Of a DNA stretch of 64,000 nucleotides, positions 888-17,605 are shown in pieces; position 1 is the first letter of the stretch, and each line of letters begins with the position of its first letter. Position numbers and translations under genes: made by a program. The notes below the pieces were generated by a model. That model worked only from the letters and a program-made list of their open reading frames with translations, ran no database searches and had not been told where the DNA came from. The stretch comes from a virus, in the IMG/VR virus record IMGVR_UViG_3300010885_010784, positions 6,081 to 70,080 of that record; one strand, written 5' to 3'.

Positions 888-914
888 TAACCTGAGCAAG
901 TTATAAAACTGCTC
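888..914 (+). ncRNA. conserved H-type pseudoknot element, copy 1
   Basis: TAAC-CTGAGCAA-GTTA-TAAAAC-TGCTC; P1 TAAC/GTTA, loop GAGCA pairs with TGCTC. Confidence 0.7.
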
Positions 915-923
915 ACCTTTACA

Positions 924-1040
924 AGCCAGTAGCGATTGTCTGCAGATGTGTCGGCTCTGGTTCTCTGTGTGGAGATTCACACGGCGTTGGTAGTGAGGGC
1001 GATAGTTGCGAGACTACGCTGAAACACGAAAAACTACCGC
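924..1040 (+). ncRNA. candidate multi-hairpin structured RNA
   Basis: Stems AGCCAG/CTGGTT, CTGTGTGG/TCACACGG and GGTAGT/ACTACC enclosing a GCGA-tetraloop hairpin; no credible ORF. Confidence 0.4.
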
Positions 1041-1095
1041 TTCAAATTTCTGCGCCCCGAAATGTTACAGTTGTGTTACGAAATGGCATTTGCTA

Positions 1096-1126
1096 TTTAC
1101 AATGTCCGTGGCTACCTGTATAATAG
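1096..1126 (+). promoter_or_regulatory. promoter TTTACA-N17-TATAAT with ATGTC box in spacer
   Basis: TTTACAATGTCCGTGGCTACCTGTATAATAG. Confidence 0.8.
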
Positions 1127-1202
1127 ATACATACAGCAAGACAGCAATAAGAAGCAAGACAAAAATCATTTACGAAGTGGAAAAAAATTTCCCAGAAAAT
1201 GC

Positions 1203-1231
1203 TTGACTTATGAGTTGTCTTCCTGTATAAT
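1203..1231 (+). promoter_or_regulatory. canonical housekeeping-sigma promoter
   Basis: TTGACT-N17-TATAAT. Confidence 0.8.
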
Positions 1232-1294
1232 AGAAGTATCAACAAAAGTTGGTATAAAACAGCAACACAACCCTTCGGGAGAAAAGAGATACAA

Positions 1295-1456
1295 ATGCCA
1301 GAAATCAAGGTAGGCGACCGCTACGAGACCAAGACTAACAAGTTTGTTGGTGTCGTTCAGGAAATCGCACAGAACAAGAACGGCTCATTCCGTGTTCGTT
1401 TGGACATTGACGGAAAAGCACACTGGACTTCGGCTCAGGGAACTGTCCTAGCCTAA
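1295..1456 (+). CDS. small beta-rich (SH3/KOW-like) protein, 53 aa
   Basis: MPEIKVGDRYETKTNKFVGVVQEIAQNKNGSFRVRLDIDGKAHWTSAQGTVLA; RBS GAAAAGAG; not in ORF track. Confidence 0.75.
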   Translation: MPEIKVGDRYETKTNKFVGVVQEIAQNKNGSFRVRLDIDGKAHWTSAQGTVLA

Positions 1457-1467
1457 ATCTTATAAGG

Positions 1468-1500
1468 CAGACCTGAGTATGTCTGGCAAAATAACTGCTC
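1468..1500 (+). ncRNA. conserved pseudoknot element, copy 2
   Basis: CAGAC-CTGAGTAT-GTCTG-GCAAAATAAC-TGCTC. Confidence 0.7.
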
Positions 1501-1513
1501 ACCCCAAAAACTA

Positions 1514-1539
1514 AATGTCGGTGGTCTCCGCTATAATAG
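1514..1539 (+). promoter_or_regulatory. ATGTC-box/TATAAT phage promoter
   Basis: AATGTCGGTGGTCTCCGCTATAATAG. Confidence 0.8.
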
Positions 1540-1584
1540 ACCTTGTAAGAAACAAAACCCTACTAACAAAGAAAAGAGATAACT

Positions 1585-2037
1585 ATGGCAAGAGCCATTT
1601 CAGTAAAAATCCCAACAGGCAAAGTCATTGAGATGATTGAGCAGAAGATTACTCAAATCAACGAAGACATTGCTACCTACCCTGCTCGCAAGGCACAATA
1701 CAAGGCAGACCTAGAAGCCTACACCCAATCGGTTGTTCGTCTTCTAACTGACCTGCTAAACACTCGGGGAACTGAGTTGCTTTCTAACGAAGACAGCAAC
1801 GAGAACATTCGTGTTAGCACCAACTACAACAACTCTGTGGAAATCACAATCGGTAGAGAACTAACTGCCGAGTTGGTAAAGCCAAAAGAGCCAGAGAACC
1901 CAGAGCCAAACGGCTACTATGGTCGTGTCTATGGTTCTAAAAAGGCAGAGTTGGAAAAGACACTCAAACTACTTCGTATGAGTGAGCAGGAAACAATCAC
2001 TTCGTCTGCTTACAACAGCGTTTTGGAACTGCTGTAA
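1585..2037 (+). CDS. early hypothetical protein
   Basis: 150-aa ORF, RBS GAAAAGAG, between promoter and pseudoknot/terminator. Confidence 0.85.
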   Translation: MARAISVKIPTGKVIEMIEQKITQINEDIATYPARKAQYKADLEAYTQSVVRLLTDLLNTRGTELLSNEDSNENIRVSTNYNNSVEITIGRELTAELVKPKEPENPEPNGYYGRVYGSKKAELEKTLKLLRMSEQETITSSAYNSVLELL

Positions 2038-2057
2038 AACCATAGGCTTACGCCTAA

Positions 2058-2084
2058 ACACCTGAGCAAGTGTCTAAACTGCTT
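2058..2084 (+). ncRNA. conserved pseudoknot element, copy 3
   Basis: ACAC-CTGAGCAA-GTGT-CTAAAC-TGCTT. Confidence 0.7.
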
Positions 2085-2128
2085 CCTGAATTGGGGTAGC
2101 GACTAGACAGGTAAAATAATTTCGCTAA

Positions 2129-2158
2129 TCTTCCTGTCTTCGGGCAGGGAGATTTTTT
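2129..2158 (+). terminator. intrinsic terminator (UUCG loop)
   Basis: TTCCTGTC-TTCG-GGCAGGGA followed by T6. Confidence 0.8.
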
Positions 2159-2226
2159 GCGCAAAAATCCTGCGCCCCGATTTATAACAGTTTAGTTACG
2201 AACCCTATTTATTTTTGCCTAGACTA

Positions 2227-2257
2227 TTTACAATGTCGGTGGGTAGGTGTATAATAG
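2227..2257 (+). promoter_or_regulatory. promoter TTTACA-N17-TATAAT with ATGTC box
   Basis: TTTACAATGTCGGTGGGTAGGTGTATAATAG. Confidence 0.8.
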
Positions 2258-2295
2258 GACTATCAACAAAAAACTACTAATGAAAGGTGTGTCTT

Positions 2296-3315
2296 ATGGC
2301 TCACGAACTAGAAATAAATAACGAAACAGGCGAAGCGTCTTTTGCTTCTCTACGCCAACCTGCTTGGCACAAACTCGGCACTGTGTTTGAAGAAGAAGTA
2401 AATACCGCAGAAATGCTAAAACTGGCAAAACTAGACGGCTGGAATGTTCGTCTTGAAGATGTCGCAATCCCTACTGGTTTTGAGAGCGACAAGTCTTACT
2501 CGTTCGTATCTCGCACCAATCCATTCAACGCAGACCAGACAGACATTCTTGGTGTCGTTGGTGAGCGTTATGTTCCATTACAGAATGAAGACTTGTTCTC
2601 GTTTGGTGATAACCTGCTAGACGGCGGTGGTCGCTGGGAGACTGCTGGCTCTATCAAGGGTGGTCGTCAAGTGTTCGGCTCTATCGCATTGCGAGACGGC
2701 ATTACACTAGACCCTAATGGTCGTGCCGATAAGATTGATAACTATCTTCTAATCAACACTTCTCACGACGGCTCTATCGCTATTCAGGCAAGTATCACGC
2801 CTGTTCGTGTTGTGTGTGCTAACACTCTCAACCTTGCTCTATCTTCATTCAAGGGTAAGTCTGCTTCTAAGCAGTCATTCAAAATCCGCCACACTTCAAC
2901 TGCCGAAGGTAAAATCGCAGTTGCTCGTGAAGCGTTAGGTTTGGCTTCTAAGTATCTTGATGAGTTTTCTGTTATGGCTAACGCTATGATTGAAAAGGAA
3001 ATCACTAAGGCTGACTTTGATAAGATTGTCGCTCTTGCTTACCCTGCCCCTGAAAAAGACAGCAAGGGTTCATTCAAGAAACACGACAGCAAAGTTGATT
3101 TGCTAAACGCCATTTATGTCGGTCAATACAACGACACCATTTCGGGAACTGCTTGGGGAGCATACAACGCTCTAACCGAACGCCTAGACTGGTATCGCTC
3201 GGCTCGTGGTGGTTCAAACGAGAGCATTTACGCAAGTGCTTCTGGCTTTGACCCTGTGATGAACGCAGAGAAGAACCGCCTAATGAAGATTGTTCAATCA
3301 GTCGTAATGGCTTAG
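2296..3315 (+). CDS. DUF932 / phage-plasmid-like protein (TIGR03299 type)
   Basis: MAHEL..PAWHKLG, WETAGSIKGGRQVF, NTSHDGS, PVRVVCANTL and GTAWGAYNALTE motifs; RBS GAAAGG favours ATG 2296. Confidence 0.9.
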   Translation: MAHELEINNETGEASFASLRQPAWHKLGTVFEEEVNTAEMLKLAKLDGWNVRLEDVAIPTGFESDKSYSFVSRTNPFNADQTDILGVVGERYVPLQNEDLFSFGDNLLDGGGRWETAGSIKGGRQVFGSIALRDGITLDPNGRADKIDNYLLINTSHDGSIAIQASITPVRVVCANTLNLALSSFKGKSASKQSFKIRHTSTAEGKIAVAREALGLASKYLDEFSVMANAMIEKEITKADFDKIVALAYPAPEKDSKGSFKKHDSKVDLLNAIYVGQYNDTISGTAWGAYNALTERLDWYRSARGGSNESIYASASGFDPVMNAEKNRLMKIVQSVVMA

Positions 3316-3327
3316 TCCATTCCAAAT

Positions 3328-3354
3328 AATCCTGAGTAAGATTTCAAACTGCTC
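3328..3354 (+). ncRNA. conserved pseudoknot element, copy 4
   Basis: AATC-CTGAGTAA-GATT-TCAAAC-TGCTC, ending 4 nt before tRNA-Glu. Confidence 0.7.
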
Positions 3355-3358
3355 ACTT

Positions 3359-3433
3359 GCTCCCATAGTTTAGTGGTTAGAACGCCAGGTTTTCATCCTG
3401 GTGGCGAGAGTTCGATTCTCTCTGGGAGTGCCA
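3359..3433 (+). tRNA. tRNA-Glu(UUC)
   Basis: Acceptor GCTCCCA/TGGGAGT, anticodon arm CCAGG-TTTTCAT-CCTGG, TTCGA T-loop, encoded CCA. Confidence 0.93.
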
Positions 3434-3525
3434 AATTTTTGCGCAAATTTTCGCCATCATTAATAGCCATGCTAACTATAATAATCTAATTACGAACACC
3501 AAAATCTTTTCCCCGAAATTGCCTA

Positions 3526-3556
3526 TTTACAATGTCGTAGGTATCCTGTATAATAG
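3526..3556 (+). promoter_or_regulatory. promoter TTTACA-N17-TATAAT with ATGTC box
   Basis: TTTACAATGTCGTAGGTATCCTGTATAATAG. Confidence 0.8.
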
Positions 3557-3584
3557 ATACTATAACCCAAGAGAAAGAGATACA

Positions 3585-4016
3585 ATGACAGACTATCCTG
3601 ACCGCTATTCACTACGCACCAAAGGCACTATCGTTCACTTGATAGATGTTGAGAAGGCTACTGCTCTAATCAAACAGCGTTTCAACAATCAAGACGCAGA
3701 CATTACCGCCGAAAGAATGGCAATCGTAAATGGCAAGAATGGTCTTGCTACTGTTCTTGACGAAGGCGTTGGCTGGTTCGCAGACAAGGACGGCAAGTTG
3801 CCTATTAACTATTGGGGCAAGAATGGAAACAACGGCTACCTAGACATCACCGTTGAAGAGTTGTATCCACTAATCAGTGATGAAACTATTGACCTTGCTG
3901 ACCATGTTCGTATCTTTGGCGACCGCCTAGAAACAAACCTATCCACTTGGCAATACTACGCCAAAGGCTATCCACAGGACAAGATGTCGGTGGTTCCTGC
4001 TACAATGGTATCCTAA
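3585..4016 (+). CDS. early hypothetical protein
   Basis: Start moved to ATG 3585 (MTDYPDRY) after RBS GAAAGAG; the track start runs through the promoter. Confidence 0.8.
   Translation: MTDYPDRYSLRTKGTIVHLIDVEKATALIKQRFNNQDADITAERMAIVNGKNGLATVLDEGVGWFADKDGKLPINYWGKNGNNGYLDITVEELYPLISDETIDLADHVRIFGDRLETNLSTWQYYAKGYPQDKMSVVPATMVS
3983..4008 (+). promoter_or_regulatory. ATGTC-box promoter variant inside upstream CDS
   Basis: GATGTCGGTGGTTCCTGCTACAATGG. Confidence 0.65.
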
Positions 4017-4034
4017 CAGAAAGAGACAAACCCT

Positions 4035-4262
4035 ATGAAAAAATACTATGTAAAAGTCCAAGTCAATTATGACGGAGACATTGAAGCAAACTCACCAGAA
4101 GAAGCCGAAGAACTTGCTTGGCATTCTTATTATGGCGACAACGCTACTCTAATCTACGACAGCGTTGAGAGCATTGATGTAGAAGAGTATGACCACTGCG
4201 AAGAGTGCGACAATCCAGAAGACGAATGCGAATGCGAAGAAGAAGAGAGTGAAGACGAATGA
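4035..4262 (+). CDS. small very acidic protein (IEAxSxEEAEExA motif, Cys/Glu tail)
   Basis: 75 aa; shares motif with 5493..5699. Confidence 0.8.
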   Translation: MKKYYVKVQVNYDGDIEANSPEEAEELAWHSYYGDNATLIYDSVESIDVEEYDHCEECDNPEDECECEEEESEDE

Positions 4263-4414
4263 CCCAACTTGAAAGCCTAAAAGCAGAACGCAAAGCCATT
4301 GAAAACGATTTCAAGAAGTTTGATGGCAGACTAAATGATTGGACGCACGACCTTTTGTTGAGCCGTATGGAAATGCTAGATAGTATGATTAGCATTGAAG
4401 AATACAATGCCTAA
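4259..4414 (+). CDS. small hypothetical protein (51 aa)
   Basis: MTQLESLKAERKAIEND...; ATGA overlap with upstream stop. Confidence 0.65.
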   Translation: MTQLESLKAERKAIENDFKKFDGRLNDWTHDLLLSRMEMLDSMISIEEYNA

Positions 4415-4501
4415 AAAGGAGAAATGTGAACACACTTTCATTTGTGATTATTGCATCAATTGTGGTGCTTATTATATTTCTTATGCAGTAAAGGAGCAGC
4501 A

Positions 4502-4741
4502 ATGACTAGAACATTTAGAGCACAGATTACATGGGACTTTGAGTTTGAGGAAGATGGCTACACCGAGAGTGAGCGTGAGTATCTTGAAGAACAACTTGAC
4601 GAAGGAGAGACCCTTGAACCACGCACGGAAGAGCAAATGATAAACTATGCTCATAGTGAACTACTGGATGCATTGTATAACAGTATAAAGTACAATGACC
4701 TTTATCAAATGATAGATGTAGTGGAAGTAAATGAAAAGTAA
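4502..4741 (+). CDS. small acidic hypothetical protein
   Basis: MTRTFRAQITWDFEFEEDG...; RBS AAGGAG. Confidence 0.75.
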   Translation: MTRTFRAQITWDFEFEEDGYTESEREYLEEQLDEGETLEPRTEEQMINYAHSELLDALYNSIKYNDLYQMIDVVEVNEK

Positions 4742-4868
4742 TAAAGAAACTATCTTGGAACTCATTGATTCATTCATGGAGATTCCAGATGTGGACAGCC
4801 TTCCTACAACGACTATTCTAAATTTGTTGAGGCTAAGAATTGTTGACCCTTACTTCTTTCAGGAGTAG
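4731..4868 (+). CDS. small hypothetical protein (45 aa)
   Basis: MKSNKETILELIDSFMEIPD...; coupled to upstream ORF. Confidence 0.55.
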   Translation: MKSNKETILELIDSFMEIPDVDSLPTTTILNLLRLRIVDPYFFQE

Positions 4869-4966
4869 GGCTTCAATTTCTGCGCCGCAAAACATTATGT
4901 CAAGTAACCATGCTAAACATCAGAACCCGATTACGAAGAGGTAAAAATTTCCCCAGGTTTTGGGTA

Positions 4967-4997
4967 TTTACAATGTCAGTGGTATCGGTTATAATAG
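4967..4997 (+). promoter_or_regulatory. promoter TTTACA-N17-TATAAT with ATGTC box
   Basis: TTTACAATGTCAGTGGTATCGGTTATAATAG; ATG 6 nt after -10. Confidence 0.8.
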
Positions 4998-5001
4998 GTA
5001 C

Positions 5002-5232
5002 ATGACAATAAAATATGTAGAAAAATCAACAAGAGTATCTGATGTATCGTACTGGGATGAATTGTATCATTCTGATGTGGCTACCGTTTACGAAGCCTCT
5101 AACTACCGTGACTACTACCGAGTAAAGACTAGTAAGACTACTAAGTATTTCAAAGGTGAGAGTGCTTGGTCTGCCGTGCAACGCTATGTTGTAGACGCAG
5201 GTGACTTTGGTGGCTGGGGTATCTTCCGATGA
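5002..5232 (+). CDS. leaderless hypothetical protein
   Basis: MTIKYVEK...KTTKYFKGESAWSAVQRY. Confidence 0.75.
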   Translation: MTIKYVEKSTRVSDVSYWDELYHSDVATVYEASNYRDYYRVKTSKTTKYFKGESAWSAVQRYVVDAGDFGGWGIFR

Positions 5233-5447
5233 ACATCAATCCTAAAGCAATTAGTGATACAACTATCCCTATCCACGACTTAGTACATGGTGAGTTGAAG
5301 AGCCTTATACTTGCAGCAGAAGAGCAAGTGGAAGCGTCGGATGAAGACCTTGCTAACTATTGGAATGGAAGGTTAGACGCATATGCTGAATTATATAAAC
5401 TAATATATGATTTGATATTTATGCGAGAAGACCTTGACAAACAGTAA
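5229..5447 (+). CDS. hypothetical protein
   Basis: 72 aa; ATGA overlap. Confidence 0.7.
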   Translation: MNINPKAISDTTIPIHDLVHGELKSLILAAEEQVEASDEDLANYWNGRLDAYAELYKLIYDLIFMREDLDKQ

Positions 5448-5462
5448 CCCATACTGTATAAT
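5434..5462 (+). promoter_or_regulatory. consensus housekeeping-sigma promoter
   Basis: TTGACA-N17-TATAAT. Confidence 0.85.
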
Positions 5463-5492
5463 TGATATATAACCCTTAGAGAAAGAGAATCA

Positions 5493-5699
5493 ATGGCAAC
5501 ATTTGATGTAACCCTATCCTTTCACTTTGATACCGAGTATCAGGTAGAAGCAGATAGTTATGAAGAAGCAGAAGAAAAAGCAATGGCAATGGGTCAAGAG
5601 TGGAAACCTTATTCATCTGAATTAGGATATACTCACGACTGGTATTCAGTAGACATTGAAAACTGTTTTACTAACGATGAGTTGGATGAAGATGAGTGA
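5493..5699 (+). CDS. small very acidic protein (VEAxSxEEAEExA motif)
   Basis: 68 aa; paralogous motif to 4035..4262. Confidence 0.8.
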   Translation: MATFDVTLSFHFDTEYQVEADSYEEAEEKAMAMGQEWKPYSSELGYTHDWYSVDIENCFTNDELDEDE

Positions 5700-5865
5700 G
5701 TGCGACTGCGAGAAGGTTGTTTGTCCTAAACATCATGGAGCATTTGATTGCACACCCTTCTGTGACATTTGTGAAGGTAACACAGAATACTGCACTACCC
5801 ACGATGAATGGGAAGCAGAACAAGCAAAGACTTATCTAGCACAGTATGGAGAAACATATGAGTGA
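5692..5865 (+). CDS. small Cys/His-rich (zinc-binding) protein
   Basis: MSECDCEKVVCPKHHGAFDCTPFCDICEG. Confidence 0.7.
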   Translation: MSECDCEKVVCPKHHGAFDCTPFCDICEGNTEYCTTHDEWEAEQAKTYLAQYGETYE

Positions 5866-6097
5866 TTTCGTTACTGAAAAAGAATTCGATGATGCCATAG
5901 ACCTTCTATATTCATTCGTTGATAAGTTTGTTAATGATGATTCAGAAGACTTCTCTATGCAACTAACAGAACTAACTAATCTAGCATACATGCAGGGATG
6001 GCATAAAGCCATTGACATGGTATTAGATGTCAGTGGTAACATGTATAATGGATTCGATAGCCCAACCCTACAAGAACTGGAGCAACGCATTGTCTAG
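5858..6097 (+). CDS. hypothetical protein
   Basis: MSDFVTEKEF...; RBS GGAG. Confidence 0.7.
   Translation: MSDFVTEKEFDDAIDLLYSFVDKFVNDDSEDFSMQLTELTNLAYMQGWHKAIDMVLDVSGNMYNGFDSPTLQELEQRIV
6026..6051 (+). promoter_or_regulatory. ATGTC-box promoter inside CDS
   Basis: GATGTCAGTGGTAACATGTATAATGG. Confidence 0.7.
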
Positions 6098-7126: not shown

Positions 7127-7367
7127 GGCAGACATTCTGTCAGAACTATGGTTAGGCTATAAGAACGACGACAACTTTGAAGATTTCTTTGCCTACAATG
7201 ACCTAGGGCTACCACTAGCCTATGCTGTAGCAAATGGCATAGTGAAGGGAACAGAGGTGTCTACTAAGTTTATCAATGAAACCTTTATGTTGCTCCTAGC
7301 CAGCCTAGAAGTAGAAGACGAAGGGTTCAGCACACTTGACGACATATTCATTTCAGCACCACGTTAA
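7101..7367 (+). CDS. hypothetical protein
   Basis: 88 aa; FFAYNDLGLPLAY motif. Confidence 0.8.
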   Translation: MSETTLESKADILSELWLGYKNDDNFEDFFAYNDLGLPLAYAVANGIVKGTEVSTKFINETFMLLLASLEVEDEGFSTLDDIFISAPR

Positions 7368-7392
7368 ATGTCGGTGGTAGGGAGTATAATAG
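7367..7392 (+). promoter_or_regulatory. ATGTC-box/TATAAT phage promoter
   Basis: AATGTCGGTGGTAGGGAGTATAATAG; ATG 6 nt after -10. Confidence 0.8.
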
Positions 7393-7396
7393 AACT

Positions 7397-7558
7397 ATGG
7401 ACAAAATAACATACGAAGTATCACGCTCACTAATCGAACACAACTACGACATTGTTCTCACAGACGAGCAATGGCAGGAAGTCAGCGACACCCTGTATAA
7501 CGCATTAGATAGTTATACTTGGCTTGACTTGCCTAGCATAATCAAAGACCTTGATTAG
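7397..7558 (+). CDS. small acidic leaderless protein (53 aa)
   Basis: MDKITYEVSRSLIEHNYDIVLTDEQWQEVSD...; not in ORF track. Confidence 0.7.
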   Translation: MDKITYEVSRSLIEHNYDIVLTDEQWQEVSDTLYNALDSYTWLDLPSIIKDLD

Positions 7559-7566
7559 ATAAAGAG

Positions 7567-7602
7567 ATATGCCTCTGCCTGGTGCAGGGGTGTATTTTTT
7601 TT
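7567..7602 (+). terminator. intrinsic terminator ending the early region
   Basis: ATATGCCTCTGC-CTGGT-GCAGGGGTGTAT followed by T-tract. Confidence 0.8.
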
Positions 7603-12203: not shown

Positions 12204-12416
12204 ATGGAAGACATTCAGGATATTGAAACCAGAGTAGACCAACTCTACAGCAAGATTGATGATATCAATGCTGAGTTGTATTCTCTTGGTGGCGAGGAAG
12301 AAAGATTCGAAATATTCGAAAGACTTCGTGAATTGATTTCACAAAAAGAACAAGAAAATGATTTGATTGCTGCAGCCGTGCTTGGCTGGGCTTATGAAGA
12401 ATTAGCCAACGTTTAG
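12204..12416 (+). CDS. small acidic helical protein
   Basis: 70 aa; TATAAT 5 nt upstream. Confidence 0.7.
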   Translation: MEDIQDIETRVDQLYSKIDDINAELYSLGGEEERFEIFERLRELISQKEQENDLIAAAVLGWAYEELANV

Positions 12417-13096
12417 TCGTGGTTAGTTTTTTGTTTTACTAAAGCCAACATTCTTTCTGGAGTTTTTGCAGAATAGTATAGCCAGTAAAGTTCTATGTTC
12501 TTCATTTGATTATGATTAAAGCCAGGGTCGTGTATCTGTGTTTGATGTCCAAGACAATAGATGGTTCCATCATGTCTAATAAACTTACTACCCTTAATGA
12601 TTGTGTGTGCTAATTCAAATGCTGAATCTTCTGCTCCCCATTGCTTAAACTTTTCATCCATACCGCCAACACTCCACCAGGTTTCTGGTGTGCATACCCA
12701 GACTCCACCGTTGGCTTCTGTAAACAACGTATGCTTTAGAATGTTCATATTACTACCAGAATAAATTGACTCACTCATTTGCATATCAAAATATTTACAA
12801 AGTCTATAAGGATTATGAATCATTCCATCTGTTTGGCATTGCTCTATGGCTTCTAGTAAAGGCTTAATTTCTGGTAGTGTATCTGCGTCATTAAGTATAA
12901 TAACGTCACAGTGAGCCTCCTGTGCCCTCTTTACACCATCATTACGACTGGCAGCAGCGTTCCAGAATTCCCCTGGTCTATCTGTATAAAATATTTCAAC
13001 GTCTGGTAAGTTGGTTTGATACCATTGAAGAACCATTTCTAATGGTCTTATTCTGCTTGGAGTTTGTCTCCATGGAATTATCAATCCTATTTTCAT
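12413..13096 (-). CDS. GT-A fold glycosyltransferase (galactosyltransferase-like)
   Basis: IIPWR, SRNDG, DAD and GGMDEKFKQWGAED motifs. Confidence 0.88.
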   Translation of the reverse strand: MKIGLIIPWRQTPSRIRPLEMVLQWYQTNLPDVEIFYTDRPGEFWNAAASRNDGVKRAQEAHCDVIILNDADTLPEIKPLLEAIEQCQTDGMIHNPYRLCKYFDMQMSESIYSGSNMNILKHTLFTEANGGVWVCTPETWWSVGGMDEKFKQWGAEDSAFELAHTIIKGSKFIRHDGTIYCLGHQTQIHDPGFNHNQMKNIELYWLYYSAKTPERMLALVKQKTNHD

Positions 13097-13099
13097 ATG

Positions 13100-13176
13100 T
13101 CCCCCTGACAGGATTCGAACCTGCATTCACATCCGTTATGCACATATTGGGTAGAAACCAACGCCACTACAGAGGG
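13100..13176 (-). tRNA. atypical tRNA-Arg(UCU)-like gene lacking a normal D-arm
   Basis: Acceptor CCCTCTG/CAGGGGG, anticodon arm GTTGG-TTTCTAC-CCAAT, T-arm GCAGG-TTCGAAT-CCTGT. Confidence 0.65.
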
Positions 13177-13181
13177 TTGCA

Positions 13182-13862
13182 TTAACTTCTCACTAACTTA
13201 AGTATATCATCTGAATTGGTGATAGTTAAATAGTATTTATATAAATTAAAATTGTTCATAAGGTCTTTGTCTGGATTTTGCAACACCTGACTTCTTTCGT
13301 GGTCAAAGGCGTGTATTACCCCTGTATGTTTTACTAATGGTATATTGTGCACTAGAGTGTGAACGTATTCAAAGGCTGTGTCTTCATACCCCCACTTTAC
13401 GAACTTCTGGTCCATGCCACCGAGCATCCACCAAGAAGATGGCTTGAAGACCCAGATACCAGCGTTAGAATCACGCTCAACTCTAAATGCACAGTTCATC
13501 AAGGAGCCAGACTCAAAGTATTGGTTGGTGCTTTGTAATGGATAGAAACGATACTCTGTGTATGGATTGTGAATAAAATTATCAGACATTGCGGACTCAA
13601 TTGTTTTACGAAGAGTCTCTGTTCCTTCTGGGATTGTATCTGCATCATTCATAATAATGACATCTGCACCATTACCCTCTGCGAGTTTTACCCCCAGATT
13701 TCTAGTATGTGATGGTAGCCACTCAACTTCTGAATAAGTTAGCGACACCACGGTTGCTTCTGGTAAATTTTTTTCGTACCAGGCTTTAACCGTTTCATAA
13801 GCCCTGAGCCTACTGTCTTGATGTTTCCAAGGTATGACTACATAAATCTTTGGTTTATCCAT
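13182..13862 (-). CDS. GT-A fold glycosyltransferase (paralog of 12413..13096)
   Basis: VIPWK, TRNLG, DAD and GGMDQKFVKWGYED motifs. Confidence 0.88.
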   Translation of the reverse strand: MDKPKIYVVIPWKHQDSRLRAYETVKAWYEKNLPEATVVSLTYSEVEWLPSHTRNLGVKLAEGNGADVIIMNDADTIPEGTETLRKTIESAMSDNFIHNPYTEYRFYPLQSTNQYFESGSLMNCAFRVERDSNAGIWVFKPSSWWMLGGMDQKFVKWGYEDTAFEYVHTLVHNIPLVKHTGVIHAFDHERSQVLQNPDKDLMNNFNLYKYYLTITNSDDILKLVRS

Positions 13863-14491
13863 ACTTGGTCCTCCACTAAAGGTCCCCACTCATAAGAGCG
13901 ATGTACGCAGATAAAGTTATTCTTATTCATATAAGTAGCAATGTCCATGTGGTTCTTATGCCCAGGGTGTCTATCAAATGTTTCTGTTTCAATGTGCAAC
14001 ATCTTAGCACTATAAAGAGCATCCCCCATGCCCATTAAAACTTCCCAACTAAATCCCTCAACGTCAATCTTAATTATATCAATTGTGATTCCTGACTTAT
14101 CTTCTTTTTCTAGAAAGGAATCAAAGCGTGTCATTGGAGTCATAATCTTATTATATTCAACATTTTGAAACTTCTGAACAGTCTCCATTGAAGAACATCC
14201 AGCCTCGTCAATGTTTGATGATACTACTTGTGTAAATGATACTTGACCATTGAAGTCACCGACGGCAGACTCAACTACGTTAAAGTTAGGATAGCGTTTC
14301 CTTGTTTCTTTTACTGCTAGTGGGTTGGCATCAAAGGCGTAGATTTCTTTACCGTTTAATTTTTCACGAAAGTATTCTGCATCGTCACCATCTCTAGTTC
14401 CAATATCAAAAATAGTATTGGCAGTGTCGCCAAAATATTTTCTATATGCATCTACGGCTGGCTCTAGCCATTTATTCTGCAATATCTTCAT
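13838..14491 (-). CDS. FkbM-family SAM-dependent methyltransferase
   Basis: IFDIG..DG, YAFDANP and IDIIKIDVEG motifs. Confidence 0.88.
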   Translation of the reverse strand: MKILQNKWLEPAVDAYRKYFGDTANTIFDIGTRDGDDAEYFREKLNGKEIYAFDANPLAVKETRKRYPNFNVVESAVGDFNGQVSFTQVVSSNIDEAGCSSMETVQKFQNVEYNKIMTPMTRFDSFLEKEDKSGITIDIIKIDVEGFSWEVLMGMGDALYSAKMLHIETETFDRHPGHKNHMDIATYMNKNNFICVHRSYEWGPLVEDQVWINQRFM

Positions 14492-14786
14492 CCTCCAGGA
14501 TTGCTAGTACGCTTGCACTAAACAATGACATGTAGTCTTCGCCATCGTGCTTAAATTTTACAGTGTTGTTTGGATTAAACATAATCTTGTCTCCAACCTT
14601 TACGTCCATTGGTACACGAACGCCACTCTTTAGTTGTCTGCCTTCTCCTACAGCAAATGCAACTCCAATATTCTTTGGTTGCTCAAACTCGTTCTGAATA
14701 ATAAACAGACCACTAGAAGATTGCTCTGGCTCTGTACTCTTCTTTTCTATCTTAATAATGATGATGTCTTCTGGTGCTTTAATCAT
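14472..14786 (-). CDS. groES: co-chaperonin GroES
   Basis: SSGLFI mobile loop and GVAFAVGEG...PMDVKVGDKIMF. Confidence 0.85.
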   Translation of the reverse strand: MIKAPEDIIIIKIEKKSTEPEQSSSGLFIIQNEFEQPKNIGVAFAVGEGRQLKSGVRVPMDVKVGDKIMFNPNNTVKFKHDGEDYMSLFSASVLAILEDEDIAE

Positions 14787-15073
14787 TACTTCTCCCAAGT
14801 CTCGTCAATCACTAGCAATGCAATTAGTGCATAGTTTGCCATGTCAATGAATGAATCACGAAGGCTCTCGTGCTCTGGGTCAACGCCCGAATCAACCAAG
14901 TGATTGATACGAGCCAACTTGTCGTGCATACGAACACGCAAACCATTTAGAGGACCGCCTGGACTGCCAGAGATATTCTTTGGTCCGTAGTCCTTGTGCT
15001 TGCTTACCAGAAGCGTCTCCGCTTCCTTAAAAACCTTTGATACTGATTGTGTAAATTCTTTACTTAGTTCCAT
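14786..15073 (-). CDS. DUF1599 / nucleotide-modification-associated domain protein
   Basis: KHKDYG, RMHDKLARI and DSFIDMANYALI motifs. Confidence 0.8.
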   Translation of the reverse strand: MELSKEFTQSVSKVFKEAETLLVSKHKDYGPKNISGSPGGPLNGLRVRMHDKLARINHLVDSGVDPEHESLRDSFIDMANYALIALLVIDETWEK

Positions 15074-15243
15074 TAGTACTCCTTGTGTTCTACTCCGTGC
15101 TTGCTGTCCACATACTTGTGAATCTTGCGAAGCGTTCTAGCCTTTGTGAATCCGTATACGATTACTGCGAATACAGCATTCCAAAAGAATTCTGCAATGA
15201 TGTGGTCAAGTCCAAAGACTACATCAAATAGTTCGTGTTCCAT
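15073..15243 (-). CDS. small membrane protein (56 aa)
   Basis: MEHELFDVVFGLDHIIAEFFWNAVFAVIVYGF...; RBS GAGGAG. Confidence 0.6.
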   Translation of the reverse strand: MEHELFDVVFGLDHIIAEFFWNAVFAVIVYGFTKARTLRKIHKYVDSKHGVEHKEY

Positions 15244-15386
15244 TAGTGCTCCTCACAATGCATGATTGCATCGTTCTCTGTTTGATAGTTGTCCCAACAA
15301 TTAGTTGGGGTTAGTGTTATTGTAAATACAATTATACCAATAAGACCTAGTATTGTCAATATGGTTAGTTTAGAATTCTTCGTCAT
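15243..15386 (-). CDS. small N-anchored membrane protein (47 aa)
   Basis: MTKNSKLTILTILGLIGIIVF...CWDNYQTENDAIMHCE; contains TTGACA-N17-TATAAT (15359-15331). Confidence 0.55.
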   Translation of the reverse strand: MTKNSKLTILTILGLIGIIVFTITLTPTNCWDNYQTENDAIMHCEEH

Positions 15387-15708
15387 TTATAAGCCATTCT
15401 AATATGTGTGGGTTGTCTTTTAACACCCCTAAAAGATTGTTTTCATAAAGACCAATAAAGTAATGTTCCCAGGAATCAAAATCGTCTTTCTTCCTAGGCT
15501 TTGGCAGTAGGTCATTGTTAAAACGAATAGCGTGAAGAATCTCGTGTAGAAGAGTTACCTGCTTTTTGCTTGTTGCAATGTCTGAGTCAAGCACAATAAT
15601 ATTTCCATTATCCAGTGTGTATCCATAACTGCCATCATTCAGCATACCGTCAGTTTGTTTTGAACGTTCTTCGACAACGTAGTTTTGTGCACCAATTTTG
15701 ATAATCAT
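15370..15708 (-). CDS. HExxH metallopeptidase (ImmA/IrrE-like)
   Basis: TLLHEILHAI; start MIIKIG after RBS AGGAG. Confidence 0.75.
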   Translation of the reverse strand: MIIKIGAQNYVVEERSKQTDGMLNDGSYGYTLDNGNIIVLDSDIATSKKQVTLLHEILHAIRFNNDLLPKPRKKDDFDSWEHYFIGLYENNLLGVLKDNPHILEWLINDEEF

Positions 15709-15843
15709 TATGCTCCTATAATTGTTTTGACTAATAAGATAACTGTGTTTAAGAACAGTATAAAGACTGTCCATTTAGGTAGGTACATAGTTTCCTTTGT
15801 TTGATATCTCTATTTTACAGCAAAAGGCTGTGTTTGTCAAGAC

Positions 15844-17085
15844 CTATTTGCCTCTAAGTGTGCCTAGTTTGTGTCCAACTAGTGTGTCTGTTGGCTTACC
15901 GTCACGGTATACCCTAATGACTGCAGCAGGAGCATCTGGTGTTCCTGTTACTGTAAAGTCTGAGTTAGGTACGTTGTACTTACCATCTCTAATAATTCTA
16001 ACAATCTTACCTGTTGCTGTACCGCCAGAAGAATTCCAGGAGACCATGCTACCAACACCCACAGCCTTAGACAGTTGTCCTTGGTCTGAATAATCTTTAC
16101 CAAAATCAGCAAACAATGCTTTGTCTGCTTCTCTAGTTGCAATGCCACGACTCCAAGAGAATCCAGCGTCACCGCCCCAAGCGTCCCACATAATTCTACC
16201 GTTGCTTGGGTTGCTTGTATTGTTAAAGTCCTTACCCTTTTTGTCTACCTCGTGGCGTGAGAAGAATGAGTACATACGCTTTACAACGCTTAGTGACATT
16301 GAGCGACCTGCCACAATGTCTCTTGCTCTACCCCAGCCAACCGCAGTTCCTGCACCTGTAGCCTTGCCTTCTTCTTTCCAGCGGATAGCACGAGCAGCAG
16401 CAGACTTCATACCAGCAGTTGGACTGTAGCCTTCTGCCTTTTCTACGCCCTCGTACTCCATCTCGTCTTCGTCTTCCATGTGATGGTCTTCCAAAGACTC
16501 AAGTTTCTCTGCGTCCTGATACATCATGCCGATGCTGTATGCAGTTGGTTCCCAGACACCATCTTCTTCTTCGTAAACTCTAACAGCCATTGCTGGATTC
16601 TCTGGTGGCATTGACTGAATGGCATACTCTGTTCCAGGAACACCGTAGACACCACCCTCAGTCATAATGTGCTCTACCATTCCGTGGACCATTCCCTCTG
16701 TGGTCATGCCCATTACATAATCGCCTTCAACAATTTTGTCTGCCTTATACATGGCACTGATTGATGTTCCCCCAGATGATACAGCACCAGAAGAGTCTCC
16801 ACCATTGCCACCCTGCAACTTAGGCTTACGAAGTTTAACTTTCTTTCCCCCACGCATAGAGGTTGGAGTCTTCACACCAACGTTTGGGTATTTTGGATTT
16901 GCCGTTGACGATGGATTAACACTGTTAGGACCATCAGCCTTGTCTGCTTCTGCGGCATAAAGAGCCTGAACCTGTGCGGTCGCTTCTGCTTCCGTCTTGT
17001 GGCAGCCCATGACTTCGCCGCCTTCTTTTACTACTGGATACCCTGAGCATCCGTTTGAACCTAGTGAACCTACTGCGTATGGCAT
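15844..17085 (-). CDS. multi-module, probably head-associated protein with C-terminal Tudor-like (DUF2945-like) domain
   Basis: MPY...GCH.T..EA..Q..ALY module; KRMYSFFSRH...WDAWGGDAG module; VGSMVSWNSSGGTATGKI module. Confidence 0.7.
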   Translation of the reverse strand: MPYAVGSLGSNGCSGYPVVKEGGEVMGCHKTEAEATAQVQALYAAEADKADGPNSVNPSSTANPKYPNVGVKTPTSMRGGKKVKLRKPKLQGGNGGDSSGAVSSGGTSISAMYKADKIVEGDYVMGMTTEGMVHGMVEHIMTEGGVYGVPGTEYAIQSMPPENPAMAVRVYEEEDGVWEPTAYSIGMMYQDAEKLESLEDHHMEDEDEMEYEGVEKAEGYSPTAGMKSAAARAIRWKEEGKATGAGTAVGWGRARDIVAGRSMSLSVVKRMYSFFSRHEVDKKGKDFNNTSNPSNGRIMWDAWGGDAGFSWSRGIATREADKALFADFGKDYSDQGQLSKAVGVGSMVSWNSSGGTATGKIVRIIRDGKYNVPNSDFTVTGTPDAPAAVIRVYRDGKPTDTLVGHKLGTLRGK

Positions 17086-17549
17086 TAGTCTTCCATCTCC
17101 ACTTCTGTTTCTGGCTCTTCCATGCTTGCACGGAGTTGCCAGCAAAACTTTTGTGATGCAGTCTGGCGGTCAGCAAAGAAGTTTGCTAGTCCATACTGCT
17201 TGGCTTCATTAGCCAGGTCGCTTGCTACGACCAAGGCTTCAATGTGTAATTCAATTGACTCGTAGAGGTCAGCAACCATTGGCTCTGGCTCTCCAACAAT
17301 GATTGGCTCTGATACAGTTGACATGTCAAAGAAGTCTGTTAGTCTGTATGGGGCATAAGCCTTGAGCATACGAAGCCACTCTGCGTATTCGTCTGTAGCC
17401 TCGTCATAGTCTTCATAAATCTCTCTAAAGAATTCGTGAAACTGTTTGAAATCATCGGACTCCACGTTCCAGTGGTAGCCATGTGCTTTAAATTTAAGGG
17501 CAATGTTATCTGCTAGTAGCAGTCTCAATGCGGATAGTAGTTGTTCCAT
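17085..17549 (-). CDS. dps: Dps / ferritin-like protein
   Basis: HGYHWNV..F..FHEFF..IYE....DE.AE ferroxidase signature; leaderless. Confidence 0.9.
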   Translation of the reverse strand: MEQLLSALRLLLADNIALKFKAHGYHWNVESDDFKQFHEFFREIYEDYDEATDEYAEWLRMLKAYAPYRLTDFFDMSTVSEPIIVGEPEPMVADLYESIELHIEALVVASDLANEAKQYGLANFFADRQTASQKFCWQLRASMEEPETEVEMED

Positions 17550-17578
17550 TGTTTTATTATACCATATCTATTGGTGAT

Positions 17579-17605
17579 GGGCAGTTTGAAATCATACCCA
17601 GGATT
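17579..17605 (-). ncRNA. conserved pseudoknot element, copy 5
   Basis: AATC-CTGGGTAT-GATT-TCAAAC-TGCCC; compensatory GAG/CTC to GGG/CCC change. Confidence 0.7.

Follow-up and report, generated by a model that had tools for sequence, protein, structure and literature searches.

The window analyzed here is a 64,000-nt stretch of viral DNA (positions 6081-70080 of virus record IMGVR_UViG_3300010885_010784). It carries five copies of a small pseudoknot, hereafter the knot, each located behind a gene on the same strand.

382..864, plus strand: ORF of 160 aa, no PHROG match; stop 862-864, 23 nt before copy 1
888..917, plus strand: knot copy 1; P1 888-891/900-903, loop CUGAGCAA 892-899, linker UAAAAC 904-909, P2 3′ strand UGCUC 910-914, then an ACC flank; covariance-model match 885-918, 45.7 bits, E = 3.3e-9
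1295..1456, plus strand: ORF of 53 aa; stop 1454-1456, 11 nt before copy 2
1468..1501, plus strand: knot copy 2 (core 1468-1500); P1 1468-1472/1481-1485 (5 bp), loop CUGAGUAU 1473-1480, long linker 1486-1495, P2 3′ strand 1496-1500; 36.4 bits, E = 1.2e-6
1585..2037, plus strand: ORF of 150 aa; stop 2035-2037, 20 nt before copy 3
2058..2087, plus strand: knot copy 3 (core 2058-2084); P1 2058-2061/2070-2073, loop 2062-2069, linker 2074-2079, P2 3′ strand UGCUU 2080-2084 (G-U end pair); 39.8 bits
2296..3315, plus strand: phrog_1221 gene, 339 aa; stop 3313-3315, 12 nt before copy 4
3328..3358, plus strand: knot copy 4 (core 3328-3354); P1 3328-3331/3340-3343, loop 3332-3339, linker 3344-3349, P2 3′ strand 3350-3354, 4-nt spacer ACUU, then the tRNA; 46.4 bits, E = 2.2e-9
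3359..3433, plus strand: tRNA-Glu(UUC), directly 3′ of copy 4 and 4 nt past its end
17577..17605, minus strand: knot copy 5 (core 17605-17579); P1 17605-17602/17593-17590, loop CUGGGUAU 17601-17594, linker 17589-17584, P2 3′ strand UGCCC 17583-17579 (compensatory G:C); 40.9 bits, E = 7e-8
17612..17875, minus strand: ORF of 87 aa; stop 17614-17612, 6 nt before copy 5

Inspection of the sequence found all five copies where an earlier note on this DNA had placed them. The note had them starting 6-23 nt past a CDS stop, and the measured distances from stop to P1 are 23, 11, 20, 12, and 6 nt for copies 1-5. Its other descriptive claims hold as well: no U-tract follows any of the five, copy 4 abuts the tRNA-Glu gene, and a GAG:CUC pairing is switched to GGG:CCC in copy 5. 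A loose regular expression run over the whole 70,080-nt record returned these five and three dissimilar matches without the CCUGRGYA head, and no further copies. A promoter-like sequence, ATGTCGGTGG..TATAAT, lies 3′ of copy 2 (~1513-1542), and a hairpin with a T-run lies ~40 nt downstream of copy 3 (~2125-2160). Contigs from RNA libraries bridge copies 1-3 (DNA carry-over is possible), which shows only that not every molecule ends at these copies.

A covariance model was built from the five window copies with P1 as its only structure, and it scored those copies at E = 1e-6 to 2e-9. Applied to the window and 80 related loci (946,603 nt), it gave 335 matches at E ≤ 1. Among the matches listed (300 of 335), all but two are on the gene strand, and the two exceptions, window copy 5 and one in locus L051, both lie 3′ of minus-strand genes. 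A second scan required nothing beyond P1, loop letters C1, U2, and A7, and the anchor AA[AC]N. On the gene strand it found 401 candidates, 283 with all four P2 pairs and only 23 with three of four; the opposite strand yielded 98 candidates, and the two with all four pairs are real copies behind minus-strand genes. The pattern exceeds chance.

The knot is an H-type pseudoknot of ~27-33 nt with a P1 of 4-6 bp of free sequence, and its consensus comprises the loop C-U-[GAGYA]-W, the linker N2-3 AAAC, and the tail UGCUC. The usual build has a 4-bp S1, an L1 of 1-2 nt (C, U), a one-nucleotide junction, an S2 of 5-6 bp (GAGYA:UGCUC, at times plus U2:A), and an A-rich L3 of 6 nt that ends in AAAC. 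Covariation was evaluated in 131 covariance-model matches from 36 diverse loci, taken with no selection on P2 pairing and representing 119 distinct sequences. Each of the four core P2 pairs is formed in nearly all of them (118, 118, 119, and 118 of the 119), with double-sided changes in 13, 52, 14, and 13 sequences, respectively. The P2 covariation score was 0.674 compared with 0.227 in shuffles, 0 of 500 of which reached 0.674, and it was at most 0.106 when the partner was slid by 1-3 columns. The P1 5′ strand takes 43 different 4-nt sequences, and one copy (L029) carries a compensated insertion that pairs GGGG with CCCC. This covariation is decisive and the fold is real. The structural reading in the earlier note, which had described a pseudoknot with covariation in both stems and had proposed a covariance model to check it, is fully supported and if anything understated the case.

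The knot is a self-contained, compact element. Also fully supported is its action at the RNA level and on the sense strand: its G-U pairs would be A-C mismatches on the opposite strand, and every copy lies on the strand of its neighboring gene. Loop positions C1, U2, and A7 are invariant among apparent true copies, although U2 was fixed in one of the scans. G3:C is the commonest pair at its position (139/169), the junction base can be A, U, C, or G, and the 3′ flank in a large freshwater clade reads A (65%), C (62%), C (52%). By analogy with luteovirus-type pseudoknots, the invariant letters (C1, U2, A7, and AAAC) may serve base triples. Nearest-neighbor energies are +0.7 to -1.6 kcal/mol for P1 alone in four window copies and -2.8 to -5.4 kcal/mol for P2 as a hairpin.

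The earlier note had reported the knot as five copies in a single phage. Far from being such a peculiarity, the motif is widespread among phages and mobile elements. Genomes of the freshwater clade carry 4-12 copies each, and the knot is also present in contigs labeled as many bacterial phyla and in three labeled archaeal. Canonical copies are present in eight named phages with hosts in the Actinobacteria, Cyanobacteria, and Firmicutes, among them Mycobacterium phage Labelle, and in a crAss-like phage from feces. The carriers differ widely in their genes and include T7-like, T4-like, and crAss-like phages, siphophages, actinophages, and prophages. Nine pairs of tandem knots lie at most 60 nt apart with no ORF in between, for example in the crAss-like phage cr7_1. 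The comparison with Rfam that the earlier note suggested returned no match among the 4227 models of Rfam 15, even at E ≤ 10 on a 56-nt slice, and text searches of the literature did not find the knot. It may be identical to some RAGATH motif absent from Rfam.

The knot belongs to the 3′ untranslated end of the preceding cistron. In the clade, an open frame of 40 codons or more ends no farther than 90 nt upstream of 263 of 285 copies; the distance from stop to P1 has its mode at 5-6 nt and is mostly 25 nt or less, with a tail beyond 25 nt. In bacterial contigs such an ORF lies within 120 nt of 85 of 106 copies, most often 4-11 nt away. Overall, the P1 core usually starts 5-25 nt past the stop codon. 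The association is retained among homologues of the window genes: a knot lies behind the 53-aa ORF (1295..1456) in 60 of 73 related loci, behind the 150-aa ORF (1585..2037) in 50 of 56, and behind phrog_1221 in 68 of 81. Behind the phrog_1221 homologues the knot is followed by a tRNA in 36 loci and by none in 32, while a tRNA without a knot occurs in 0 of the 81. One bacterial copy sits behind a Mu gpT-like head gene.

Downstream, the knot adjoins elements that make 3′ ends in a substantial minority of copies, often at a distance of 0-9 nt. A tRNA starts within 15 nt of P2 in 44 of 487 non-redundant copies; in a looser set it starts within 30 nt in 64 of 716, mostly at 3-9 nt, and these make up 64 of the 184 tRNAs found in all loci. 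Arthrobacter phage Molivia has the order SSB stop, 5 nt, knot, 1-3 nt, tRNA-Gly, and in Nostoc phage NMeng1 the knot is ~4 nt before a tRNA. Type III hammerheads with the cleavage site 6 nt past P2 follow the knot in L090 (twice; 50.5 and 41.2 bits with Rfam) and L143, and hammerhead-like cores lie behind it in L200 and L203. The L090 neighborhood reads hammerhead, ORF, knot, hammerhead; that of L082 reads RAGATH-1 hammerhead, ORF, knot. For 42 of 487 copies a U-run begins no more than 14 nt downstream, compared with 69 of 3000 random positions (2.3%). About 70% of the 487 copies have no recognizable 3′-end maker within 15 nt; 108 were classed as ‘RBS plus start within 75 nt’ and 233 as ‘other’. 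In the clade, 35 of 235 copies are directly followed by a G+C hairpin without a U-run. DUF2800 RNA lies behind the knot in L174, L128, L178, and L219, and in several Firmicute phages the knot precedes the genes for scaffold and major capsid (D6E, portal-knot-scaffold; B166, minor head protein-knot-ORF41-capsid; and phiEF-1.1). A promoter-like sequence follows several of the clade copies inspected.

We tentatively favor a role as a 3′-boundary cap that protects the upstream message, a reading that is possible rather than probable. A few nucleotides downstream of the knot, the transcript would terminate at a U-run or be cut, whether by RNase P where a tRNA adjoins, by a hammerhead ribozyme, or perhaps by host endonucleases acting in the spacer between cistrons. 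This would put the knot at the new 3′ end, or 3-9 nt from it, where it would stop 3′-to-5′ exoribonucleases or deny them a single-stranded landing site, and the upstream coding region with its stop codon would thereby survive. If RNase P cleaved at the 5′ end of tRNA-Glu, for example, the upstream RNA would terminate 4 nt past copy 4. Formation of a 3′ end at the knot and its resistance to exonucleases are both presumed, and for copies with no end maker or with promoter-like sequence downstream the 3′ end itself is assumed. The knot is not tied to a single host, occurring in contigs labeled as many bacterial phyla or as archaeal and in named phages, and this speaks for a cap. Tandem knots are a better fit to a redundant barrier than to a stop-codon-specific signal.

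Among the four functions the earlier note had offered, a 3′ stabilizer or a processing-linked element is favored by the tRNAs, hammerheads, and U-runs downstream of a substantial minority of copies. An antiterminator (put/nut-like) or a phage-specific protein decoy fits poorly with occurrence in phages of many phyla and in archaeal-labeled contigs, and a ribozyme or RNase P site behind the knot, which would cut it from the downstream RNA, argues against both. Several observations count against the cap as well, among them the ~70% of copies with no recognizable end maker within 15 nt and the RNA-library contigs that bridge copies 1-3. With modest energies and a 5-bp P2, the knot would need considerable help from tertiary contacts to be an evident barrier to RNase R or PNPase. 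H-type knots braced by a triplex are noted mainly for withstanding force from the 5′ side, such as that of ribosomes, which does not favor a 3′ cap. The placement before scaffold and capsid genes in several Firmicute phages would fit protection of downstream RNA at least equally well, and the loop letters invariant across phyla fit the criteria for ‘sophisticated’ RNAs considered below.

The knot could instead stop machines that arrive from upstream, such as terminating or sliding ribosomes, the 5′-to-3′ exonuclease RNase J, or Rho, and shield the RNA behind it, whether a tRNA, a ribozyme, DUF2800 RNA, the next cistron, or the scaffold and capsid genes of D6E, B166, and phiEF-1.1. The architecture is that of the luteovirus-type frameshift knots, which withstand being unwound from their 5′ side, the modal 5-9 nt from the stop matches the mRNA entrance of a terminating ribosome, and the tRNAs, hammerheads, and DUF2800 RNA are often 0-9 nt behind the knot. 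We nevertheless consider this role unlikely, if worth keeping in view, given the U-runs close behind some copies, the broad spacing from the stop codon, a spacing to the next start codon that varies from ~28 to 70 nt, and tandem knots with no ORF between them; moreover, a hammerhead or RNase P site would sever the knot from the RNA to be shielded. Rather less likely is mimicry of a tRNA acceptor arm, read by a universal tRNA-end enzyme (RNase P, the CCA-adding enzyme, or a 3′ trimming nuclease) that cuts, trims, or maintains the end. P2 stacked on P1 gives a 9-12-bp helix whose terminal paired G is preceded by a U and whose first unpaired 3′ base is usually A, a topology shared with the pseudoknotted acceptor arm of plant-virus tRNA-like structures. 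The invariant U2 (fixed in one scan), the common G3:C pair, the A-C-C trend of the clade flank, the striking adjacency to tRNA genes, and the presence in bacterial- and archaeal-labeled contigs all agree with such mimicry. However, the bacterial-contig matches read show no preference for CC after the A (itself fixed by the search pattern), examples of knot-tRNA spacers are not CCA-like, and the tRNA and tRNA-like models of Rfam do not match. Cleavage in L1 would destroy the knot and be redundant with an RNase P site 4-9 nt downstream.

An RNA polymerase signal, in which the knot forms in nascent RNA after the ribosome leaves and acts as part of a terminator, as a pause, or in anti-backtracking or antitermination, is improbable. 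U-runs begin 1-6 nt after P2 in examples of a class that exceeds the random rate, the clade hairpins without a U-run and the hairpin with T-run 40 nt past copy 3 would agree with it, but most copies lack a U-run and many are followed by the next cistron after ~30-70 nt, so that they are not efficient terminators. The RNA-library contigs that bridge copies 1-3, the archaeal-labeled carriers, and the lack of likeness to put (two long stem-loops) or nut (BoxA/BoxB) also speak against it. We give equally little credence to a very small ligand aptamer resembling preQ1-I in size and layout, or to an unrecognized self-cleaving motif for phage transcript processing, although the knot shares neighborhoods with hammerheads (L082, L090). 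The criteria for a ‘sophisticated’ RNA include a pseudoknot, non-varying loop nucleotides, and occurrence in many phyla (PMC5737381), and the knot has all three. Against this, the Rfam preQ1 and ribozyme models do not match, the copies lie 3′ of genes with no expression platform and number 4-12 per genome behind unrelated genes, and a ribozyme would be superfluous beside an RNase P site or a second ribozyme. In preQ1-I the ligand is read by the junction base, which here varies. More doubtful still is a binding site for a phage or element protein, be it a translational repressor, an N-like factor, or a nuclease guide. Multiple copies, invariant single-stranded letters, and orientation with transcription are consistent with one, but the carriers are very different in gene content.

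The knot shares with the luteovirus-type -1 frameshift pseudoknots, for example that of beet western yellows virus, a short S1, an L1 of 1-2 nt starting with C, a short S2, a one-base junction, and an A-rich L3 of 6-7 nt able to lie in the S1 minor groove. It differs in that just 23 of 464 copies have a slippery heptamer 3-10 nt upstream (compared with 2.3% of random positions), in its location behind a stop codon rather than a shift site, in being followed in several copies by a tRNA or ribozyme and not by coding sequence, and in its occurrence several times per genome in DNA phages. The preQ1-I riboswitch aptamer (Rfam RF00522) is likewise an H-type knot of ~30 nt in which C-U and a short P2 come after an A-rich 3′ linker; the phage knot differs in its multiple copies 3′ of genes, its variable junction base, and the lack of an Rfam match at E ≤ 10. 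In the tRNA-like acceptor arm of plant viruses and in their small xrRNAs, a hairpin loop pairs with the 3′ tail in a protective structure near the RNA end. The loop-to-tail pairing at or near an RNA end is similar, whereas the knot is much smaller, has no tRNA-like domain left, and matches none of these in Rfam.

The ‘downstream element’ motifs, such as Mu-gpT-DE, and the RAGATH motifs are conserved RNAs located behind phage genes or in prophage regions rich in ribozymes, the RAGATH motifs having been found close to genes for hammerheads and twisters. One source counts 36 RAGATH motifs, 33 of them of unknown function (PMC11061315). The copy behind the Mu gpT-like head gene and the one in the RAGATH-1 hammerhead neighborhood place the knot in similar surroundings, although it matches no model in Rfam 15. 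The RNase III processing sites of phage T7 and similar 3′ stabilizing hairpins in mRNAs of phages and bacteria are multi-copy, intercistronic structures, which after processing form the 3′ terminus of the upstream message and delay 3′ exonucleases. As with the knot, the structure lies just behind genes, and the same mode of action is proposed here. Those structures, however, are long double-stranded hairpins cut by one host enzyme, whereas the knot is a ~30-nt element with fixed loop letters that would rely on neighboring cutters (tRNA with RNase P, or hammerhead) or terminators, and it is common to phages of many phyla.

The window was read directly and scanned with a regular expression. Both located the five copies of a ~27-33-nt H-type RNA pseudoknot, referred to here as the knot, that the earlier note had reported.

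Copies of the knot in the window, each from direct reading and the regular expression scan
888-914, plus strand: copy 1
1468-1500, plus strand: copy 2
2058-2084, plus strand: copy 3
3328-3354, plus strand: copy 4
17605-17579, minus strand: copy 5

In these five copies the hairpin stem P1 contains 4-5 bp of free sequence and encloses an 8-nt loop, CUG(A/G)G(C/U)A(A/U), followed by the P1 return strand, a linker that finishes with AAAC, and the tail UGC(U/C)(C/U). The proposed pairing of GAGYA in the loop with the UGCUC tail, forming the helix P2, was borne out, as was the compensatory switch to GGG:CCC in copy 5. In copies 1-5 the upstream ORF stops 23, 11, 20, 12, and 6 nt before P1, 4 nt separate the end of copy 4 from tRNA-Glu, and none of the five copies carries a U-tract, all in agreement with the note. 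A loose scan of the full 70,080-nt virus record, of which the window covers bases 6081-70080, gave no sixth copy. As most copies keep a constant 10 nt between the loop and the P2 return strand, the typical knot has an S1 (P1) of 4 bp, a single-stranded connector L1 of 1-2 nt, an S2 (P2) of 5-6 bp, a 1-nt junction, and a second connector L3 of 6 nt. An apparent negative correlation between P1 length and linker length was discarded as an artefact of this fixed 10-nt P1b-plus-linker distance. The energy of P1 alone is marginal, +0.7 to -1.6 kcal/mol in four copies, implying that both helices must support each other. Contigs from freshwater and lake RNA libraries bridge copy 1 (record 17), copy 2 (records 11 and 18), and copy 3 (record 6); these are assembled contigs, blind to ends, strand, and level, and they may derive from carried-over DNA. 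Nothing about habitat can be read from the small word shares of runs X2-X24.

We probed the fold with a covariance model trained on P1 only of the five window copies, with no knowledge of P2. The model was run on the window plus 80 related IMG/VR loci retrieved via the phrog_1221 protein (946,603 nt) and gave 335 matches at E <= 1, and all but two of the 300 listed were on the strand of the reference gene. Our own structural scan fixed P1, the loop positions C1, U2, and A7, and an AA[AC]N anchor, leaving P2 free. It returned 401 candidates on the gene strand, 283 with 4/4 core P2 pairs and only 23 with three; of 98 on the opposite strand, two had 4/4 pairs, both of them genuine copies behind minus-strand genes. 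The full-pairing candidates comprise 169 distinct sequences, about six odd ones probably being chance. Across this set, P2 position 3 is G:C in 139, A:U in 17, and G:U in 10; position 4 is A:U in 118 and G:C in 47; position 5 is G:C in 149, C:G in 9, and A:U in 8; and position 6 is C:G in 110, U:G in 46, and U:A in 9. P1 has 43 distinct 4-nt 5'-strand sequences, and the junction base is U in 88, A in 69, C in 8, and G in 4.

The cleanest covariation test used 131 model hits from 36 diverse loci, unselected for P2, which reduced to 119 distinct rows. The core P2 pairs were paired in 118, 118, 119, and 118 of these rows, the sole exception being an evident false hit, and double-sided changes occurred in 13, 52, 14, and 13 rows. 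P1 cells were 96.0% paired, with double changes in all four P1 pairs. The covariation score was 0.674, compared with 0.227 for shuffled rows (0/500 reached the observed value) and at most 0.106 with partners slid. One copy has a compensated insertion, a GGGG loop with a CCCC tail. C1, U2, and A7 were invariant in apparent true copies under a model that allowed double changes elsewhere. The loop pairs 3' of its hairpin and both helices show compensatory change, which makes the knot an H-type pseudoknot, and covariation of this strength allows the fold to be treated as established. That it forms in the transcript follows from the many G-U pairs and the strict strand preference. A DNA-level element such as a protein binding site, cruciform, or nick site was rejected because P1 is free in sequence yet always complementary, because the G-U pairs (46/169 at P2 position 6 and 23/676 P1 cells) would become A-C on the other strand, and because copy orientation tracks the local gene strand.

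The note had left open whether the motif was already catalogued; none of the 4227 models of Rfam 15 matches it. The whole window at gathering thresholds gave tRNAs as the sole matches, window 800-3500 at E <= 10 gave no match at the knot copies, and a 56-nt slice around copy 1 at E <= 10 gave only a 10-bit chance match to NiCo. A weak Rfam tRNA match at 13100-13176 on the minus strand (31.6 bits, gathering score 29), which has no ARAGORN call, may be a degenerate or unusual tRNA. The original RAGATH motif paper is reportedly that of Weinberg in 2015. Literature text searches, with that paper and the supplements of PMC10690425 outside their scope, gave no description of the knot. PMC10690425 lists 10,006 candidate RNAs from IMG/VR in those supplements; they and the RAGATH paper could include the knot. 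An excerpt of PMC11061315 states that 33/36 RAGATH motifs are still without a function.

The structure described in the note was correct; its scope of five copies was too narrow, as the motif is widespread. Complete relatives of 107-118 kb have 4-12 model hits apiece (E <= 0.01), mostly near the phrog_1221 gene. A collection scan for one common spelling only, CCTGAGYAWG-N5-13-AAACTGCTCA, found at least 120 stretches in viral contigs and at least 118 in a prokaryote genome collection, with ~39 chance matches estimated for the entire genome collection. Among the 119 genome matches listed, 97 show the most common span, 25 nt, and in 106 P1 reaches 3 bp or more (~14% expected by chance). Saccharibacteria account for about one quarter of the 80 titles listed, which also include Patescibacteria, Bacteroidota, Firmicutes, Proteobacteria, Chloroflexota, Actinobacteria, Cyanobacteria, Omnitrophota, Acidobacteriota, and others; three listed contigs are titled archaeal MAGs, and such bin labels are not always right. 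Canonical knots in eight named phages, mostly cultured, were confirmed by a BLAST search with two 32-nt copies and then the structural scan.

Named phages with canonical knots, all from BLAST and structural scan
Mycobacterium phage Labelle: canonical knot, behind gene 85
Arthrobacter phage Molivia: canonical knot, between the SSB gene and tRNA-Gly
Nostoc phage NMeng1: canonical knot
Lactobacillus phage phiEF-1.1: canonical knot
Deep-sea thermophilic phage D6E (Geobacillus phage): canonical knot
Cyanophage S-RIM4: canonical knot
Bacillus phage vB_BceM_WH1: canonical knot
crAss-like phage cr7_1: two tandem canonical knots, one with a position-3 U:A

Restriction of the knot to the clade of the window phage is excluded by the collection scans and these phages, and the knot is a real, strongly covarying, widespread RNA family absent from Rfam 15. 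The BLAST search also matched 83 Staphylococcus phage records; the Staphylococcus phage matches, among them the near-canonical variant of phage B166, have a U-U end mismatch and then a U-run, and were left out of the canonical count. A doubtful Vibrio phage match has C for U2 and is oriented opposite to the annotated small ORFs. The two cr7_1 knots (657-682 and 699-724 of its contig, L324) lie 17 nt apart in a ~630-nt annotation-free stretch upstream of a DNA primase gene. Window 1-4200 had no megablast match in the phage collection. By protein, the closest cultured relatives are Streptomyces phages at 53-55% identity, the identity of the DnaE-type polymerase (32271-35549, minus strand) to those of ~125-130-kb Streptomyces phages. 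Window G+C is only 41%, and freshwater and lake RNA libraries contain parts of the window; that the host belongs to the low-G+C freshwater Actinobacteria is only a guess.

The knot follows genes closely. Within 90 nt upstream, 263/285 clade copies have the end of an open frame that is 40 codons or longer, and the distance from stop to P1 (4-bp core) has a mode of 5-6 nt, is mostly 25 nt or less, and ranges from 5 to more than 60. The bacterial contigs have the same pattern, and wherever a family was found for the upstream ORF in genome contigs it was a phage or mobile-element gene: DUF3768 (6), DUF7249 (2), Mu gpT head protein, minor capsid protein 2, other capsid folds, ArdA, KilAC antirepressor, and Lar. 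In 68/81 clade loci a knot stands behind the phrog_1221 gene, 36 with a tRNA behind the knot and 32 without; a tRNA behind this gene without a knot occurs in 0/81. Tandem knots with no ORF between them form nine successive pairs at most 60 nt apart. In several Firmicute phages, the knot lies upstream of abundantly needed scaffold and capsid genes. A conserved locus in six Saccharibacteria contigs (L081, L100, L111, L137, L189, and L164) is an exception to the after-stop rule: a 14-codon mini-ORF runs into the knot and has its stop in the linker, and a second ribosome site and start follow downstream.

The sequences behind the knot were tallied for 487 non-redundant copies.

Downstream neighbours of the knot
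tRNA start within 15 nt: 44/487
Hammerhead-like core: 6/487
U-run within 14 nt: 42/487 (random positions, 69/3000)
G+C hairpin without U-run: 52/487
Hairpin with U-run: 2/487
Ribosome site and start within 75 nt: 108/487
Other, pooled class: 233/487

A looser set has a tRNA within 30 nt in 64/716 instances, clustering at 3-9 nt, and these represent 64/184 of all tRNAs in the loci. Locus L090, a contig labelled Polynucleobacter, has a knot directly before each of two type III hammerheads (50.5 and 41.2 bits), with the cleavage site 6 nt past P2; at 7271-7595 on its minus strand the order is hammerhead, 51-codon ORF, knot, hammerhead, and an additional knot immediately precedes the first hammerhead. 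Locus L143 has the same knot-hammerhead junction, and in locus L082 a RAGATH-1 hammerhead, an ORF, and a knot stand one after another. The DUF2800 RNA (Rfam motif RF02960) begins 0-1 nt past the knot in four contigs, and the two may form a single unit.

DUF2800 RNAs behind knots
L174, 912-1071: DUF2800 RNA
L128, 5051-5208, minus strand: DUF2800 RNA
L178, 1598-1754, minus strand: DUF2800 RNA
L219, 285-445: DUF2800 RNA

Promoter-like sequence follows several clade copies. The window itself has a near-identical family of sigma-70-type promoters, TTTACA-ATGTCGGTGG...TG-TATAAT-AGA, with 11/12 consensus matches.

Promoter family in the window
1096-1124, 1203-1231, 2227-2255, 3526-3554: family members
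~185-215, 335-360, 1513-1542: further members

Some members are without the -35 hexamer and retain ATGTCrG, a box common to relatives. Upstream of the promoters, at ~1040-1075, 2165-2200, and 3480-3515, and at the equivalent place in many related loci, are repeats that include CTGCGCCCCGA, TTACGAA / TTAAGAA repeats, and GATC-centred inverted repeats; their sequences suggest binding sites for an early-gene regulator. From copy 1 to the next promoter, ~170 nt (917-1090) are without an ORF and could be a small RNA or leader; an RNA-library contig spans 658-1038. The palindrome TTTTTGCGCAAAAA(T) occurs behind terminator-like hairpins and tRNA-Glu, at ~143-160, 2153-2170, and 3437-3452, and could serve as a regulator site. 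T5 is an example of a phage with GCGC-centred nicks.

Three of these neighbours are makers of RNA 3' ends. RNase P cutting at the 5' end of a tRNA, hammerhead cleavage, or a U-run would each leave an end immediately behind the knot, with the knot retained on the upstream product and a tail of ~3-9 nt. Together with the tight stop-codon link, this argues that the knot is part of the 3' end of the upstream cistron. There it would act as a cap that shields the upstream message from 3' exonucleases. A self-contained device would be in keeping with so broad a host range. However, most copies have no recognisable cutter beside them, the helices are short, and scaffold or capsid genes stand 3' of the knot in several Firmicute phages; moreover, knots of this architecture are best known for withstanding force from the 5' side. 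For these reasons we propose the cap only tentatively, as the leading reading among those considered, suggested by position relative to tRNA, hammerhead, and U-run, with the balance still against it.

That resistance to 5' force is what a 5'-to-3' roadblock, halting machines that arrive from the 5' side, would call upon, and the end makers placed behind the knot point to the cap instead; we consider a roadblock unlikely. Mimicry of a tRNA acceptor, recognised by a universal tRNA-end enzyme, appears less likely again. A signal to RNA polymerase and a ligand-binding or catalytic RNA are both improbable, to an equal degree, and a protein site is the most doubtful of these alternatives. A broader view, to which we give slightly more credence than to the roadblock while still thinking it unlikely, is that the knot represents a novel kind of universal RNA-end module, minimal, tRNA-acceptor-like, and triplex-braced, which occurs in phages and mobile elements of many bacterial phyla, and perhaps archaea, and is read by a machine that all hosts share. 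The fixed letters would be recognised by RNase P, the CCA-adding enzyme, a 3' trimming nuclease, or the ribosome, and the knot would join with tRNA genes and self-cleaving ribozymes in setting and preserving the termini of the individual messages into which long phage transcripts are cut.

If the proposed reading holds, the knot would be among the smallest and most widespread structured phage RNA motifs without a catalogue entry. It would explain how phages tune message levels differently within long operons, and would give a job to embedded phage tRNAs and prophage hammerheads, whose frequent pairing with phage genes is left unexplained in the portion of Perreault et al. 2011 (PMC3088659) consulted. 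Synthetic biology would also gain a useful part, a 27-nt host-independent module to protect or mark the end of an RNA.

Several known RNA classes were compared with the knot. A -1 frameshift stimulator was rejected: a slippery X XXY YYZ heptamer 5-9 nt upstream was present in 23/464 non-redundant copies versus 115/5000 random positions, so that ~95% of copies are without one, and a tRNA, hammerhead, or U-run downstream leaves no room for an overlapping shifted-frame ORF in those copies. A stimulator of stop-codon read-through, for which a conserved in-frame extension would be expected, was likewise rejected: the spacer (5 to >60 nt) departs from the fixed ~8 nt expected, the copy 1 frame meets TAA within the knot, and P1, the would-be coding extension, is unconstrained in sequence. 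An intrinsic (Rho-independent) terminator needs a stable helix with a U-tract directly behind it, and 0/5 window copies have such a tract; the U-run subset (42/487, within 14 nt) may be terminators. The preQ1-I riboswitch is a 5' UTR element with an expression platform and a conserved ligand-reading junction C; the knot is 3' of ORFs, its junction base varies, and the Rfam family model does not match it. Hammerheads and other small self-cleaving ribozymes were excluded on core consensus, with no ribozyme model matching the knot, and hammerheads are neighbours distinct from it. The lambda nut site consists of BoxA and a BoxB hairpin and the HK022 put site of two ~35-nt stem-loops, both being promoter-proximal, upstream of terminators, in lambdoid phages. 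As these sites are generally described, the knot differs in being a single ~30-nt unit and in its hosts and positions. In size and layout, its fold is similar to luteovirus frameshift knots and preQ1-I. The action proposed for the knot is like that of 3' stabilising processing sites; in T7, hairpins generated by RNase III protect messages from 3' exonucleases.
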